Virus record (IMG/VR): IMGVR_UViG_2778261569_000004
DNA from: a virus
Lineage: Duplodnaviria > Heunggongvirae > Uroviricota > Caudoviricetes
Reading direction: 5' to 3' (one strand)
Length of the DNA stretch: 13,057 nucleotides
Shown: positions 494-4,722 of the stretch, piece by piece
Layout of the letters: the number at the start of each line of letters is the position of its first letter
Position numbering within the stretch: the stretch's first letter is position 1
Translations under genes and position numbers: made by a program
The notes under the pieces: model-generated
Database searches by the model: none
Told to the model about the DNA's origin: nothing
The model's input: only the letters and a program-made list of their open reading frames with translations

Positions 494-524
494 AAATAAA
501 AAGGCCTGCGATTACAGCAGGCCT
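494..524 (-). terminator. Rho-independent terminator (minus strand) downstream of the replication-gene cluster
   Basis: Perfect 8-bp stem AGGCCTGC/GCAGGCCT (502-509 / 517-524) with a 7-nt loop; on the minus strand it is followed by TTTTATTT (plus 494-501). Confidence 0.55.
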
Positions 525-549
525 GTTATTAACTCAGTGATGTAGATGG

Positions 550-819
550 TCATTGCTTCATCTCCCTTTCCATTTCATCAATGTCAACGTCATCAGGAAG
601 ATGGGAGCAATACGCCGCTATACCATGATGATTTATCTCATACCCTTTGAACGTTACCATCTGGCGCGTAATCTCAACTTCGTTCAGGAATCCGCCATCG
701 CATAACTGCCTGGCTATTTTCGATTTGGTCTGGATTATTGGTAGTGCCTGTTCTTTCAAAGCGTATGATATTTGCGCATCCCATGCCTTTTCGAGAATGG
801 CTAATTGTTTTTTATTCAT
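550..819 (-). CDS. Hypothetical protein translationally coupled to the helicase gene (89 aa)
   Basis: ATG at 819..817 overlaps the helicase stop codon (819-821) by one nucleotide; ORF track 550..819. No family recognised. Confidence 0.5.
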   Translation of the reverse strand: MNKKQLAILEKAWDAQISYALKEQALPIIQTKSKIARQLCDGGFLNEVEITRQMVTFKGYEINHHGIAAYCSHLPDDVDIDEMEREMKQ

Positions 820-2255
820 CAGAATCCTCCTTTCTTCTTGGACTGCGGTTCCTCGCGTTCACGTCGGCGCATTTCAGCAGACTGTTGGTCTGTGTCATAA
901 ATAGCGCCATTTGCCTGAATGCAATACACCGTGCCGGTATTGCCATGACGATTGAGACGAAGGATTAGTTCGGTTTCACCAGGTGGAACACTGTCATCAA
1001 AAGCACCTTCACGATGGATCCCCACCCAATAATCGCAATCCTGTTCAATCTGCCCTGTATCTCGTGAGTCACTTGGTAATGGGCGTTTATTGGTTCGGCT
1101 TTCCAGTGCGCGGTTAAGTTGCGTCAGAAGCACAACAACGCAATCAAGCTCTTTGGCAAGGTTCTTCAGTCCTTTGGTGATCATGCCGTAAGCAAGGTCG
1201 TTGCGATCGGCCTTCTCAGCGGTCATTAGTGTCAGGTAATCGACCAGAATCATGCCAACACATCCTTTTTCTCGCTTGATTCGACGGCTTTCGCTGACGA
1301 TTTGAGCCAGAGATAATCCCGGCGTGTCGTCGATGTAAAGCATGTCGATTTCACTCAAGCGATTGGCTGTTTCGATCGCCCTGTTGAAGTCACCATCGTA
1401 ATCACCCTGATAGCCGTCATCGGCGTCATTTGTCGCCGGAAGGTAAAAAATATTCGGGTTAACACCAGACTTCTGCCCTACCAGTTTTTCCAGTATCTGA
1501 TCACCTGGCATTTCAAGGCTGAACATCAGAGCGGGCTTTTTCTCATGCACTGCGCAATTGATTGCCATCTGGCTGTATAGCGTCGTTTTCCCCATCTTAG
1601 GGCGAGCGCCAATGACAAACAGAGAGCCTTTCACCAGACCTTTCGGTGACAGCATCCTGTCCAGCGATGGGATCCCTGTGCTCATTCCCCGTTGTTCGCC
1701 TGATGGGTCAAATCGCTTCTCAAGGTCGCTAACCCAGTCTTCCATGACCTCGCCAAATGAGCGAAGGCCGCGACGCGATCCGGTTTTTGCATGGTCTGTC
1801 AGTTGCGTGAAAATCGCCTGAATAGCTTCGTACTTCTGCGTCGCAGTCATTCCGTTGCGGGAATAGAGCAATTCCGTCGCTTCAGTCATGCGGTTGATGG
1901 CGTAGCGTTCCATTGCGGTTTCGCGAACCTGCATTGCATAGGCAACGATGTTTGCGGCGCTCGGCGTGTTCTTTGCGATCTCAGCGATATAAGCAAAACC
2001 GCCAACAGACGCCGTTAACGATTTACGCTCCAGTTCATCGAAAAGCGTCAGGCCATCTACTGGCTTTTGCTCCCGGTGCATTCTGGTTATTTCTTCGAAA
2101 AGGATTTTGTGTGGTCGGCTGTAAAATGAATCGGGCTTCAGCATCGCCAGAACTTTCTGGACGCGCTCACTGCTGTCATCATCCAGAAGCAATCCACCAA
2201 TCACCGCCTGCTCTGCCTCGATGCTATGGGGCGGCGCATAAAAATTATCGGTCAT
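819..2255 (-). CDS. Replicative DNA helicase, DnaB family (P22 gene 12-type)
   Basis: N-terminal motif PHSIEAEQAVIGGLLLDD typical of the DnaB N-terminal domain; Walker A GARPKMGKTT; Walker B-like ILVDYLTLM; overall RecA-like helicase layout. Start placed at ATG 2255 ([11 protein letters not shown]) with a GAGGGTGA Shine-Dalgarno upstream, rather than the GTG at 2270 used by the ORF track. Confidence 0.9.
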   Translation of the reverse strand: MTDNFYAPPHSIEAEQAVIGGLLLDDDSSERVQKVLAMLKPDSFYSRPHKILFEEITRMHREQKPVDGLTLFDELERKSLTASVGGFAYIAEIAKNTPSAANIVAYAMQVRETAMERYAINRMTEATELLYSRNGMTATQKYEAIQAIFTQLTDHAKTGSRRGLRSFGEVMEDWVSDLEKRFDPSGEQRGMSTGIPSLDRMLSPKGLVKGSLFVIGARPKMGKTTLYSQMAINCAVHEKKPALMFSLEMPGDQILEKLVGQKSGVNPNIFYLPATNDADDGYQGDYDGDFNRAIETANRLSEIDMLYIDDTPGLSLAQIVSESRRIKREKGCVGMILVDYLTLMTAEKADRNDLAYGMITKGLKNLAKELDCVVVLLTQLNRALESRTNKRPLPSDSRDTGQIEQDCDYWVGIHREGAFDDSVPPGETELILRLNRHGNTGTVYCIQANGAIYDTDQQSAEMRRREREEPQSKKKGGF

Positions 2256-3144
2256 CGTGTTCACCCTCACGAACTTTCAGGTAGGTATTGTCGTTAAGCA
2301 GGAAATCAAATCCCTTTTTGTGCCAGACGGTTCCGCGCTGATGGTTTGGGCGCTCTTCGAACATCCATCGGCAATTTTCGCCTACGTAGCTCAAATAATT
2401 TCTCCAGTCCTGCATCGTGAACCCATGCCCGTCAAGCTGGCGGGTTATCACTCCGGCTTTGCGCCAGAACGTTCGGATCTGGTTTTTACGCTTGTCATTC
2501 AGTGCGCGGATTTTTGGCGCTTCAGGAAGGATTTCGTGGTAAGCATCGACAACATCCTGACAGCTGACGGAAGGTTTTTTCTTGTCAGACTTTTTGTCTG
2601 CTGTGGCACTCTCTAATACGTCAGTATTAGAGATAATATTATTATATTCTTTATCTGTGGTAATTTGCTGGTAATCTGCTGGTACAGTATTGCTTGCAGG
2701 CATTGGTATTGCTGGCTTTGAGGTGGTAATTTGCTGGTAATCTGCTGGTACAAAATTTGACTGATAATCGTCATATTTCTCTACCGAGAAAACTGAGAAT
2801 TTACCGTGTGAAACCCAGTCAATCATGCCGAGTTTTTTGAACTTTCTAAGCAGGTACTGAACGCGATCTGGTTTGAGTCCTGTTTCAAACGCCAGAGAGT
2901 TTCTACCGCCAAGTAGCTTCCCTCTGCCTACCAGAATTTCTCCTGCGTCAGTCATTACATACTCAGGCGTATGCTTTGCTTTGAGGATTAAGTGAACCCA
3001 CAGATGCGCAGCTTCTGCGTCCTTGTAAAACGGCACATCCATAATTTTACGGTGCAGCAAGGCATACCCCTTACCGCTGCTTTGATGCGGTTGTTGTAGC
3101 CTTCTGGCCTCTCTGGCTTCGGCTAGATTAGATATGTTACTCAT
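2245..3144 (-). CDS. Replication initiator protein (lambda O / P22 gene 18 analogue) with origin iterons inside its coding sequence
   Basis: Sits between cII and the helicase as O does in lambdoid phages. Contains a direct-repeat iteron array plus an adjacent AT-rich tract (see repeat feature). AAGGAG Shine-Dalgarno before ATG 3144. The 3' end overlaps the helicase start by 11 nt. The protein is not obviously lambda-O-like by eye, so the family assignment rests on position and the iterons. Confidence 0.7.
2657..2753. repeat. Origin-of-replication iteron array (ori) inside the O-like gene
   Basis: Two perfect 30-bp direct repeats GTGGTAATTTGCTGGTAATCTGCTGGTACA at 2657-2686 and 2724-2753. Each holds two approximately 11-bp subunits GGTAAT(T/C)TGCTGG, with a degenerate copy GGTATTGCTGG at 2705-2716. 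An AT-rich tract (about 2615-2655) lies downstream in the O reading direction, as at ori-lambda. The repeats encode a duplicated [10 protein letters not shown] peptide in the initiator. Confidence 0.7.
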
Positions 3145-3283
3145 GACCTTTCTCCTTCTGCATCAGCTTCACTTTTTCCAACTCAGCCCGGAATCGACAA
3201 GGCTGCTTGAAGCTGGACAGGAAGCGATCACGTAGTATGTGTTTGTGAATTTTGTCCTGGTAAGGACTGAGTTGTTTTGTCAT
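3137..3283 (-). CDS. Putative small protein (48 aa) between cII and the initiator gene
   Basis: ATG at 3283..3281 with an AGGAG Shine-Dalgarno 7 nt upstream; translation [48 protein letters not shown]; stop overlaps the initiator start. Below the ORF-track size cut-off and unsupported by homology. Confidence 0.25.
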
Positions 3284-3317
3284 AATTACTCCTGTGGATT
3301 GATCCAGTCTTTCTACA

Positions 3318-3596
3318 TCAGGCCTCGAAGAATTCGCCGTTCTTCGGGGCTTTTTCTTTTGTCAGGATTCTGGCTACTTTCTTAGCCAGTTCCGCCAACT
3401 CCTCGTCTTCAACACCCCATTCAAGAACAGCCAGAAGCATTCCCATTTTGGGGATGAAGCTATCTTTCCATCGCGAAATTTGCGATTCATTAATCCCTAA
3501 CGCGTCGGCAACCTTTCGCTGACCACGTACAGCAATTCGATTCAGGATGTTGCTTGTAATTGCATTCGCTTTCTTGCGAGTACTTGTAAGTTGCAT
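3318..3596 (-). CDS. cII: CII transcriptional activator (lysogeny establishment)
   Basis: Recognised similarity to lambda CII, including the near-identical block SQISRWK...[13 protein letters not shown]. The translation-initiation region TAAGGAAATACTTACATATG matches the classic lambda cII ribosome-binding site, so the start is ATG 3596, not the upstream start in the ORF track. Confidence 0.85.
3323..3360 (+). terminator. Rho-independent terminator on the strand antisense to cII (oop-like terminator)
   Basis: Stem CCTCGAAGAA/TTCTTCGGGG (3323-3332 / 3340-3349, one G-U pair), 7-nt loop, then CTTTTTCTTTT (3350-3360). It lies on the plus strand inside the 3' end of minus-strand cII, the geometry of the lambda oop RNA terminator. 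Confidence 0.55.
3550..3563 (+). promoter_or_regulatory. CII-binding site TTGC-N6-TTGC (PRE-like establishment promoter -35 region)
   Basis: TTGCTTGTAATTGC on the plus strand inside the cII N-terminal codons, oriented to drive transcription antisense through cro towards cI, as lambda PRE does. The -10 element is not confidently identified. Confidence 0.5.
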
Positions 3597-3655
3597 ATGT
3601 AAGTATTTCCTTAACAAATAAGAAGTTATGCGCATCAAATTATGCGCGTTGTATT

Positions 3656-3698
3656 CCCGCATTTCGGCGGGAATGATGACCATGACTGTTAAAGAGCG
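3656..3698 (-). promoter_or_regulatory. nutR site (boxA plus boxB hairpin)
   Basis: On the minus strand just after the cro stop: boxA CGCTCTTTAACA (plus 3687-3698, reverse complement), then boxB hairpin CCCGC-CGAAAT-GCGGG (plus 3656-3671). The boxB sequence is identical to the one at nutL. Confidence 0.6.
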
Positions 3699-3704
3699 GT
3701 GTTA

Positions 3705-3899
3705 CTATTTGTTTTTCTTGTTGCTTGGGAAAGGACGAACTTCCTCTCCAATCACACTGCCATCAGGCTTTACCGTAACCATGATGTTACGGCCTGCCAG
3801 AATGGCCTTGCTGATAGCGCACTGGATTACACCAAAGTCACTGGCTGCTTTAGCCTGTCCATGGATTTTGGCGTAATCGGCAAGTGTCATTCGAATCAT
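3705..3899 (-). CDS. cro: Cro repressor
   Basis: Recognised similarity to lambda Cro (TLADYA..GQ.K.A.D.GV.Q.AI.KAI.AGR.I.....DGSV..EEV.PFPSNKK). Start placed at ATG 3899 with a GGAGAG Shine-Dalgarno 5 nt upstream. Divergent from cI across the operator region. Confidence 0.85.
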
Positions 3900-3929
3900 A
3901 TGCACTCTCCGTTATTAACCATGAACAAA

Positions 3930-3995
3930 GAATACTACAGGTATTCAAAGCAATCAATACTCAGGGTATTTTTAGTTTAAGTACCTTAGCTATTA
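3930..3995. promoter_or_regulatory. OR operator region: three 17-bp operators with divergent PR and PRM promoters
   Basis: Operators GAATACTACAGGTATTC (3930-3946) and CAATACTCAGGGTATTT (3955-3971) are palindromic; a degenerate third site AAGTACCTTAGCTATTA lies at 3979-3995. Centre spacings are 25 and 24 bp. PR candidate on the minus strand: -35 TTGATT, 17-bp spacer, -10 TATTCT. PRM candidate on the plus strand: -10 TAGAAT at 3994-3999, which places +1 at about the A of the cI ATG (leaderless; no Shine-Dalgarno before cI). Confidence 0.6.
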
Positions 3996-4005
3996 GAATT
4001 AAGCT

Positions 4006-4722
4006 ATGGAAAATAAAAAATCACTGACGACAGAACAGCTCGAAGACGCTAAGCGGCTTAAGGCTTTGTATGAGTCAAAAAAGAAAGAATTGGGAATAAC
4101 CCAATACTCAATCGCTGATGAACTGGGTATCACCCAAGGAGCGGTAGGGCATTATCTTAATGGCAGAAACGCGCTAAACGTTGAGGTCGCATCTGGTTTT
4201 GCACGTTTGTTGCAAGTCTCAATTGCTGATTTTAGCCAGTCAATTGCTGCCAAGGTTGCAGAACAGGCAGAAAGCCTTAAGAGCGATGCCAACGTAAGGT
4301 ATGCAGGGGAATACAGAGCAGGAAAGAGGTATCCGGTGTTAAGCAGTATCCAGGCTGGCTCGTGGTGTGAAGCATGCGAACCATACACCATTAAAGACAT
4401 AGATGTTTGGCTTGAGTCTGACGCGCATATTCAAGGTAATGCGTTCTGGCTTAAAGTGGAAGGTGATTCAATGACGGCACCGGTTGGGTTAAGCATTCCA
4501 GAGGGAACATTCGTTCTTTTCGATACCGGAAGGGAGGCGATCAACGGCAGCTTGGTCATAGCAAAACTTTCTGACTCTAACGAAGCAACATTCAAGAAGC
4601 TGATAATCGACGGCGGAAATAAATACCTCAAGGGACTTAATCCTGCATGGCCTCTCGTGCCAATCAATGGAAACTGCAAGATTATAGGCGTTGCAATTGA
4701 GACAAAACTAAGGCTGGTTTGA
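4006..4722 (+). CDS. cI: CI repressor (HTH DNA-binding domain plus LexA/S24-type autocleavage domain)
   Basis: Recognised similarity to lambda CI: N-terminal LTxEQLEDAKRLKALYE.KK.ELG..Q.S.AD..G and C-terminal FWL.VEGDSMTAP ... ATFKKLI (Ser/Lys dyad). Divergent from cro. Confidence 0.9.
   Translation: MENKKSLTTEQLEDAKRLKALYESKKKELGITQYSIADELGITQGAVGHYLNGRNALNVEVASGFARLLQVSIADFSQSIAAKVAEQAESLKSDANVRYAGEYRAGKRYPVLSSIQAGSWCEACEPYTIKDIDVWLESDAHIQGNAFWLKVEGDSMTAPVGLSIPEGTFVLFDTGREAINGSLVIAKLSDSNEATFKKLIIDGGNKYLKGLNPAWPLVPINGNCKIIGVAIETKLRLV

Follow-up and report, generated by a model that had tools for sequence, protein, structure and literature searches.

The origin of phage lambda has been mapped, and its iterons are dyad-symmetric and bind dimers of the O protein (PMC5043065). 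The division of labor within lambda O, where the N-terminal part is concerned with origin recognition and the C-terminal part with the helicase side, has likewise long been known (PMC5043065). In phage L, six 11-bp repeats in gene 18 were regarded as the likely origin in the L genome paper, which also cites earlier work in which an exchange of the whole 18-12 region between phages L and P22 put the L origin within that region. Putative origins have in addition been annotated in public records for close relatives of the sequence analyzed here, and these annotations are themselves made by analogy with lambda. No binding, footprint, mini-replicon or origin-mapping experiment for this replicon type was found in the literature that was searched, and the experimental work on Stx-phage origins found there concerns solely the lambda-type O of 933W and P27, in a paper that is silent on Sakai, HK022 and P22.

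The stretch of DNA analyzed here (13,057 bp, referred to as the window) corresponds to the region for immunity and replication in a lambdoid prophage and lies in inverted orientation (Table 1). Its initiator gene encodes a protein that matches PHROG 345, 'replication initiation O-like' (E = 7e-88), and that is 100% identical to the O protein of Stx1-converting phage and of PA-series phages, with identities of 99.7% to O of VT2-Sakai, 98.7-99% to O of HK022 and HK620, and 65-66% to the proteins of L and Sf6. Compared as DNA, the gene shows 99.6-99.7% identity to those of VT2-Sakai, Stx1-converting phage, Stx2 phage 86 and many O157 phages, and the replicon type was found in 373 of 5,426 complete E. 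coli genomes. The product of the gene immediately downstream of O, 819-2270(-), matches Pfam DnaB (3.4e-31) and DnaB_C (2.8e-60), and this stretch contains no loader gene between O and the helicase gene. The designation of the initiator as O-like in the original prediction, which had been made from the sequence of the window, is justified by position and role but not by sequence, as similarity to lambda O was undetectable with Pfam (no match to PF04492, Phage_rep_O), by BLASTP (E = 4.8) and by hhalign of the family profile (probability 0.2%). Pfam and NCBIfam yielded no useful family for the protein, with a weak match to DUF7376 as the sole result from Pfam, which also gave no match to a Rep_3-type family. 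The N-terminal part of the protein matches PHROGs described as 'DnaD-like helicase loader', whose members include firmicute phage proteins.

Based on the comparative data presented herein, we propose that positions 2610-2751 probably form the replication origin of an HK022/VT2-Sakai-type lambdoid (Stx) prophage, located inside the linker-coding part of its own initiator gene, and we estimate the probability of this reading at about 0.8. The origin is not new, since it is already annotated publicly for the same sequence. In GenBank AP000422 (VT2-Sakai), two misc_binding features with 'O protein' as the bound moiety correspond to the window as 'ori iteron 1' (2723-2752) and 'ori iteron 2' (2657-2686), and the two-piece rep_origin of the HK620 record maps to 2657-2752. 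The Sf6 record refers to a 'repeat region reminiscent of the phage lambda origin; similar to phage HK620', and in the record of phage L the equivalent place is marked 'putative origin'. These records (the same sequence in VT2-Sakai and HK620, equivalents in Sf6 and L), together with the conservation at the DNA level described below, agree with the original prediction that the repeats constitute a putative origin, an interpretation that, with the refinements given below, holds in all its parts within the reach of sequence comparison. What is added to the known element are refinements, namely its resolution into 11-bp units, four specificity types, a copy-number series, a chimera in an Erwinia phage and a covarying hairpin.

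Table 1. Positions of the genes, protein domains and putative origin elements in the 13,057-bp window.
Feature	Position	Strand	Details
DnaB-like replicative helicase gene ('P' of HK022/VT2-Sakai)	819-2270	-	Overlaps the end of O; Pfam, public annotation
O-like replication initiator gene	2245-3144	-	299 aa; ORF list, translation, PHROG 345, protein identities
Helical C-terminal domain, putatively helicase-recruiting	2260-2571	-	About residues 192-295; AF2 pLDDT 74-91
Perfect inverted repeat	2610-2633		10-bp arms 2610-2619 and 2624-2633, 4-nt loop
AT-rich tract, putative DNA-unwinding element	2634-2656	-	91% A+T; placed as the lambda AT-rich region
Unit cluster 2	2653-2685	-	u4 2675-2685 GTACCAGCAGA, u5 2664-2674 TTACCAGCAAA, u6 core 2657-2663 TTACCAC
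Unit cluster 2, 30-bp copy	2657-2686	-	Encodes the duplicated 10-residue peptide, residues 154-163
Spacer between clusters	2686-2718	-	Encodes 11 residues; contains the candidate extra copy 2708-2718
Unit cluster 1	2719-2751	-	u1 2741-2751 GTACCAGCAGA, u2 2730-2740 TTACCAGCAAA, u3 2719-2729 TTACCACCTCA
Unit cluster 1, 30-bp copy	2723-2752	-	Encodes the duplicated 10-residue peptide, residues 132-141
N-terminal winged-helix-like domain, putatively unit-binding	2782-3024	-	About residues 41-121; AF2, Foldseek, type-tracking residues
cII	3318-3683	-	Immunity and replication region
cro	3705-3905	-	Immunity and replication region
cI	4006-4722	+	Immunity and replication region

The repeat finder returned two copies, 2657-2686 and 2723-2752, that are identical over 30 bp and lie 66 bp apart from start to start, as expected from the two perfect 30-bp direct repeats that had been predicted. 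On the coding (minus) strand each copy reads GTACCAGCAGA-TTACCAGCAAA-TTACCAC, which amounts to two complete 11-bp units followed by a truncated one, and the subunits of about 11 bp that had been written as GGTAAT(T/C)TGCTGG are the reverse complement of the coding-strand GTACCAGCAGA / TTACCAGCAAA / TTACCAC.. series. The motif TACCAGCARAT, allowing at most one mismatch, occurs four times in 13,057 bp, all within the two copies, where 0.42 occurrences are expected and none of 200 shuffles reaches four, and no other direct-repeat family was found in the 3.6-kb replication module (500-4100). The repeats are in frame, and the translation of 2245-3144(-) has an identical 10-residue peptide at residues 132-141 and 154-163. 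The peptide duplication is therefore exact, as had been stated, but it is not strictly tandem, as 12 residues lie between the two copies. We suggest, as a refinement, that the functional unit is the 11-bp direct repeat, present six times per putative origin, rather than the 30-bp block. In each cluster the units include just one A-tract, which is short. At 10.5 bp per turn the 66-bp distance corresponds to a non-integral number of turns, and placement of both clusters on the same face of the helix is not established.

Comparison of natural alleles lends strong support to an origin role. It drew on 306 loci, taken from annotated phages, from GTDB genomes and from IMG/VR, which gave 208 distinct O-like genes. 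The diversity in this set came from viral-contig scans led by diverged alleles, and a genome-contig scan with a single protein gave 11 loci. In all 208 alleles the units are at fixed offsets of 27, 38 and 49 nt and of 93, 104 and 115 nt past the codons for KYD[DE][YF]Q, and in the standard architecture each cluster has three 11-bp units and lies 66 bp from the other. Four main unit types are distinguished at unit positions 2-9: TACCAGCA in 77 genes, this allele included, GTCCAGCC in 72, TGCCAACA in 41 and GTCCAACG in 14. All of them have the core CCA[AG]C in common and, because a period of 11 bp is not divisible by three, this core falls in all three reading frames, where it encodes P, Q and T/S, and the remaining peptide is wholly different between types. 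The site-wise diversity (pi), calculated for the canonical alleles only and with the one- and three-cluster alleles left out, is 0.029 in the units versus 0.245 in the spacer for the type of this allele, and 0.097 versus 0.234, 0.030 versus 0.207, and 0.069 versus 0.333 for the other types. The units are about 3-8 times more conserved (Mann-Whitney p <= 2e-6 in each of the four types), which places the constraint on the DNA rather than on the peptide. The duplicated peptide would be a by-product of this arrangement, in which three 11-bp units span 11 codons (33 bp) and one 66-bp period spans 22, and the linker may tolerate whatever sequence the DNA sites impose.

The original prediction also included an extra degenerate copy, and a coding-strand AAGCCAGCAAT is present at 2708-2718 in the 11-bp register. 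It is weakly supported as a site, however, and we have rejected it as a conserved one, because it lies in the freely varying spacer (pi of 0.245 versus 0.029) and is unit-like only in this unit type. The number of clusters varies from one to four among natural alleles, always in exact 66-bp (22-codon) steps, and the spacer is duplicated or deleted along with the cluster. One-cluster alleles are represented by L091-093 and by L196, which is of another unit type, three-cluster alleles by L087/L088 and about 26 distinct 321-aa proteins, and a four-cluster allele by P0001, with 343 aa.

Unit type is closely tied to one half of the initiator. Clustering of the N-domains at 25% distance gave 11 clusters, each of which (11/11) carries a single unit type; clusters of C-domains are mixed, and the C-domain assorts independently of unit type. 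Among alleles with different units, the C-domains are up to 100% identical and the N-domains at most 72% identical. Unit type is tracked best by N-domain residues 96, 97, 100, 101 and 104, followed by 110 and 113-117, and also by residue 37. Linkage alone could contribute to the perfect association of N-domain and units, as the N-domain coding sequence comes within 30 bp of the units. The allele comparisons show that the cassette of units, AT tract and inverted repeat travels with the initiator N-domain and, as judged by its pattern of variation, is under selection at the DNA level.

The predicted structure of the initiator places these residues in a plausible context. The AF2 model is based on a shallow alignment, since large protein searches gave mostly near-identical sequences; its mean pLDDT is 58.7, and residues in it are numbered one higher (+1) than in the real protein. 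The predicted N-domain has the topology helix, beta-hairpin, helix, helix, wing (pLDDT 60-83), which fits a winged helix-turn-helix (wHTH), and the top Foldseek matches to it in the PDB are all wHTH DNA-binding domains, although these are weak (E >= 0.019). A sequence search of the PDB with the family profile found no relative. We consider a wHTH fold for the N-domain plausible from the model, in which the type-tracking residues map to helix 92-104, the predicted recognition helix, and to the wing. Residues 123-191, which hold the repeats, are unstructured in the model (pLDDT < 50) and are predicted to form a disordered linker. The interdomain position that had been assigned to the repeats thus corresponds to an AF2-predicted disordered segment between two folded domains.

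The adjacent AT-rich tract of the original prediction was recovered at 2634-2656 with its 91% A+T. The 40-nt interval 2625-2664 has a GC content of 0.175, which is the minimum of the gene and the joint minimum of the 13 kb, and 0.06% of such intervals are as low. Over 204 alleles, the 23 nt preceding the hairpin average 86% A+T, with a range of 74-96%. Beyond the AT tract in the direction of the gene lies the inverted repeat 2610-2633, which on the coding strand reads TCTCTAATAC-TGAC-GTATTAGAGA and is the sole inverted repeat reported in 2300-3100. This hairpin with its 10-bp stem was absent from the original prediction. As single-stranded DNA its folding energy is dG = -8.9 kcal/mol (z = -4.4). 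In all 208 alleles a perfect inverted repeat of 9-10 bp occupies the homologous position; its loop is T[AG]A[AC], and its stem occurs in no fewer than 10 different sequences. In the 32 distinct versions of the hairpin, 97.5% of the cells are paired, and all 10 pairs change on both sides with no one-sided change; none of 500 shuffles matches the observed pairing percentage or covariation score, and shifting the partner by 1-3 columns reduces pairing to 29-52%. Such an absence of G-U-type intermediates suggests a Watson-Crick (DNA) constraint on the hairpin. Identical stems accompany different unit types, with CTCTCTTAC found together with all four, and so the hairpin is not an element of N-domain specificity. 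We infer that its role is that of a DNA structure, and it could be the kind of origin-associated structure that is sensed by defense systems such as Lamassu.

We now put forward a hypothetical mechanism for the initiation of replication in this replicon type. Monomers of the initiator would bind through their winged-helix-like N-domain to the six units head to tail, one per helical turn, a mode of binding that is implied by the direct rather than dyad arrangement of the units. On supercoiled DNA, the resulting nucleoprotein complex would melt the adjoining AT tract, and the inverted repeat beside the unwound tract may form a hairpin or cruciform that aids opening or the loading of the helicase. 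The C-terminal domain of the initiator would bring in the phage's own DnaB-like helicase (gene 819-2270). As the phage encodes this helicase itself, we propose that a capture of host DnaB of the lambda-P type is unneeded.

One alternative explanation of the repeats, in which a protein-level duplication in the linker is all there is, be it a functional PxDxQ peptide or neutral slippage with no role for the DNA, we consider very improbable. It would fit the in-frame position of the repeats, the invariance of P133/P155 and Q137/Q159 (P134/P156 and Q138/Q160 in the +1 numbering) across alleles, and the readiness with which linker repeats expand and contract. However, it is the CCA[AG]C core, falling in different frames, that produces the invariant residues; elsewhere the peptide is completely altered from one unit type to the next, the 11-bp periodicity is kept in 208/208 alleles, every N-domain cluster has just one unit type, and the segment is predicted by AF2 to be disordered. 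To the idea that the units are bound by a host factor and not by the phage initiator we give almost no weight: a host factor would favor a single conserved site, but four unit types, one per N-domain cluster, occur in one host range (Escherichia, Enterobacter, Klebsiella and Salmonella), and although host factors assist many origins (PMC5043065), none of the analyses lent the idea any support. It is also quite improbable that the units serve the initiator mainly for autoregulation, copy control or exclusion and that replication starts elsewhere in the phage genome. Iteron arrays of plasmids do have control functions as well (PMC5043065); nevertheless, the full layout of repeats, the most AT-rich tract of the gene and a flanking inverted repeat matches that of the mapped origin of lambda, the replication module has no second repeat array, and the L/P22 exchange of the 18-12 region, as cited in the L genome paper, places the L origin there.

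A further alternative concerns the inverted repeat at 2610-2633 rather than the units, namely that it is an RNA element, either an intrinsic terminator antisense to O (plus strand, with a T-rich tail) or a stem in the mRNA. A terminator scan does flag the plus strand, with the tail TAATATTATT, but this single hit compares with a chance expectation of 0.9, and no more than three of the pairs in the stem are G-C. A terminator on the minus strand is annotated at the corresponding location in the phage L record, and the z-score of the RNA fold is about -3 for either strand. On the other hand, none of the 320 pair cells has changed on one side only (G-U type), as would be allowed in an RNA helix, the search of 2245-3200 found no promoter-like site to drive antisense transcription, and Rfam gave no match. 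On balance we regard an RNA element as unlikely and favor the reading of the inverted repeat as part of the DNA origin.

Many Stx-converting and other lambdoid prophages replicate by means of this replicon type, and the dosage of the toxin gene is amplified when the phage replicates after induction. The essence of the comparative picture is that it converts an annotation by analogy into specific testable predictions. Tentatively, and with rather less than even confidence, we put forward a joint reading in which the hairpin is needed as a DNA structure, such as a cruciform or hairpin stabilizing the opening or positioning helicase loading, and in which the four unit types and a small set of residues on the wing and one helix make up a simple recognition code, giving mutually orthogonal replicons; both may be parts of an origin that have perhaps not been described.

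How, then, does this origin compare with known systems? That of VT2-Sakai, HK022, HK620 and Sf6, with an HK022-type O and a DnaB-like P, is the same element, and it is annotated as an origin in VT2-Sakai, HK620 and Sf6. Records of the VT2-Sakai/HK620 type mark two 30-bp iterons, whereas here six 11-bp units, the AT tract and the hairpin are resolved. Phage L gene 18 is homologous (65% identity, with a nearly identical C-domain) and has 3 + 3 units 66 bp apart at the same position, given as six imprecise 11-bp repeats, TGTCCAACGGA. It differs in unit type, which is GTCCAACG in L versus TACCAGCA here, and in its N-domain.

The lambda ori (NC_001416) resembles the present one in lying inside the initiator gene, at the boundary between two domains, and in its repeats, AT-rich tract and inverted repeat with a 4-nt loop. 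In the part of NC_001416 that was compared directly (38600-40400), four 18-bp iterons at 39034-39118 are followed by the AT-rich region, and an inverted repeat (L306, 563-590), whose arms are 12 bp and whose loop is 4 nt long, has the same relative position as the hairpin at 2610-2633. The term 'lambda-style' used in the original prediction therefore holds for the order of the layout but does not extend to the mode of binding, because the units lack dyad symmetry: lambda iterons are imperfect inverted repeats of 18-19 bp, and those here are 11-bp direct units. In lambda, P loads the host DnaB, whereas here the partner is the phage DnaB-like helicase. In both lambda and this type, it is the N-half of the initiator that goes with the repeats, and the helicase system is paired with the C-half.

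The two halves are found in a different combination in Erwinia phage vB_EhrS_59, whose O protein is a chimera. Over its residues 6-178 it shares 47% identity with the O-like protein of the window (E = 5e-53), and over residues 193-316 it shares 70% identity with the lambda O C-terminal domain (E = 6e-63), a domain that among the compared proteins was found only in this chimera. Within the Erwinia O gene the units, which are 66 bp apart, are present together with the AT tract and hairpin, and the next gene encodes a lambda-P-like loader in place of the DnaB-like helicase. This indicates that N-domain, units, AT tract and hairpin form a portable origin-recognition module and that the C-domain matches the helicase system encoded downstream. 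In Pectobacterium phage ZF40, a homologous C-domain is joined to a different N-domain and the gene has its own repeat, again with a 66-bp period.

Iterons of plasmids such as P1, F, RK2, R6K and pSC101 are about 17-22 bp long and lie outside the rep gene. The present units differ from those of iteron plasmids in being 11 bp long and inside the gene, whose product has no match to a Rep_3-type initiator. Bacillus phage SPP1 has in its oriL (gene 38, encoding the replisome organizer G38P) direct repeats together with an AT-rich unwinding element within the initiator gene, as here, and also a phage helicase of the DnaB family, but it differs in having a separate loader, gp39, and a second origin, oriR. 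In their direct arrangement, the units described here resemble plasmid iterons, or the direct repeats found in SPP1 oriL, more than they do the iterons of lambda.

The number of clusters of the 11-bp units varies among natural initiator alleles, which have one, two, three or four of them, with a single cluster in the loci L091-L093 and L196, three in L087 and L088, and four copies in the 343-aa protein P0001. Every step in cluster number among these alleles, spacer included, measures exactly 66 bp (22 codons). The initiator gene of Pectobacterium phage ZF40, which combines a C-domain (the putative helicase-recruiting domain) homologous to that of the window protein with a different N-domain (the putative unit-binding domain), carries an internal repeat of its own, and here too the period is 66 bp: PVPPKSTAPVPS is present twice, and CCTGTGCC lies at offsets 276, 300, 342, and 366 in the gene. 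The initiator of Erwinia phage vB_EhrS_59 is a natural chimera in which an N-domain of the window family, together with the units, the AT tract, and the hairpin, is joined to the C-terminal domain of lambda O (70% identity), and the gene downstream encodes a lambda-P-like loader in place of the DnaB-like helicase.

Positions of features in the window and in related initiator loci
Feature	Location	Strand	Remarks
ORF, 119 aa, antisense to O gene	window 2257-2616	+	AP005153: hypothetical protein (ORF b66)
Perfect inverted repeat, 10-bp arms and 4-nt loop	window 2610-2633		directly beyond AT tract
Natural chimeric initiator gene, Erwinia phage vB_EhrS_59	L307 686-1636		
Initiator gene, Pectobacterium phage ZF40	L309 598-1368		

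ORF b66, which lies entirely within O on the opposite strand, is probably not a real gene. A feature under or adjoining the O gene is labeled 'tail protein' in PV189400, PV189407, NC_008464, NC_019708, and NC_019723, RefSeq records among them; the label appears to be a misannotation of a small ORF in the replication region. A 386-bp contig of the Xanthomonas pisi DSM 18956 assembly (NZ_JPLE01000275.1) encodes residues 1-84 of the present O-like E. coli phage protein at 100% identity, and probably represents contamination of that assembly.

Rfam returned a weak match to ctRNA_p42d at 3317-3362 (+), on the strand opposite the 3'-terminal part of cII; it scored 19 bits (E = 0.65), whereas the gathering score of the family is 50. 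Because the antisense oop RNA of lambda occupies the corresponding position, at the 3' end of cII, this segment may be an oop-like terminator hairpin.

The hairpin beside the AT tract is preserved among the 208 alleles compared, where compensatory changes maintain pairing at all 10 of its 10 base pairs and one-sided changes number zero. Lambda likewise has an inverted repeat at the equivalent relative position (L306 563-590).
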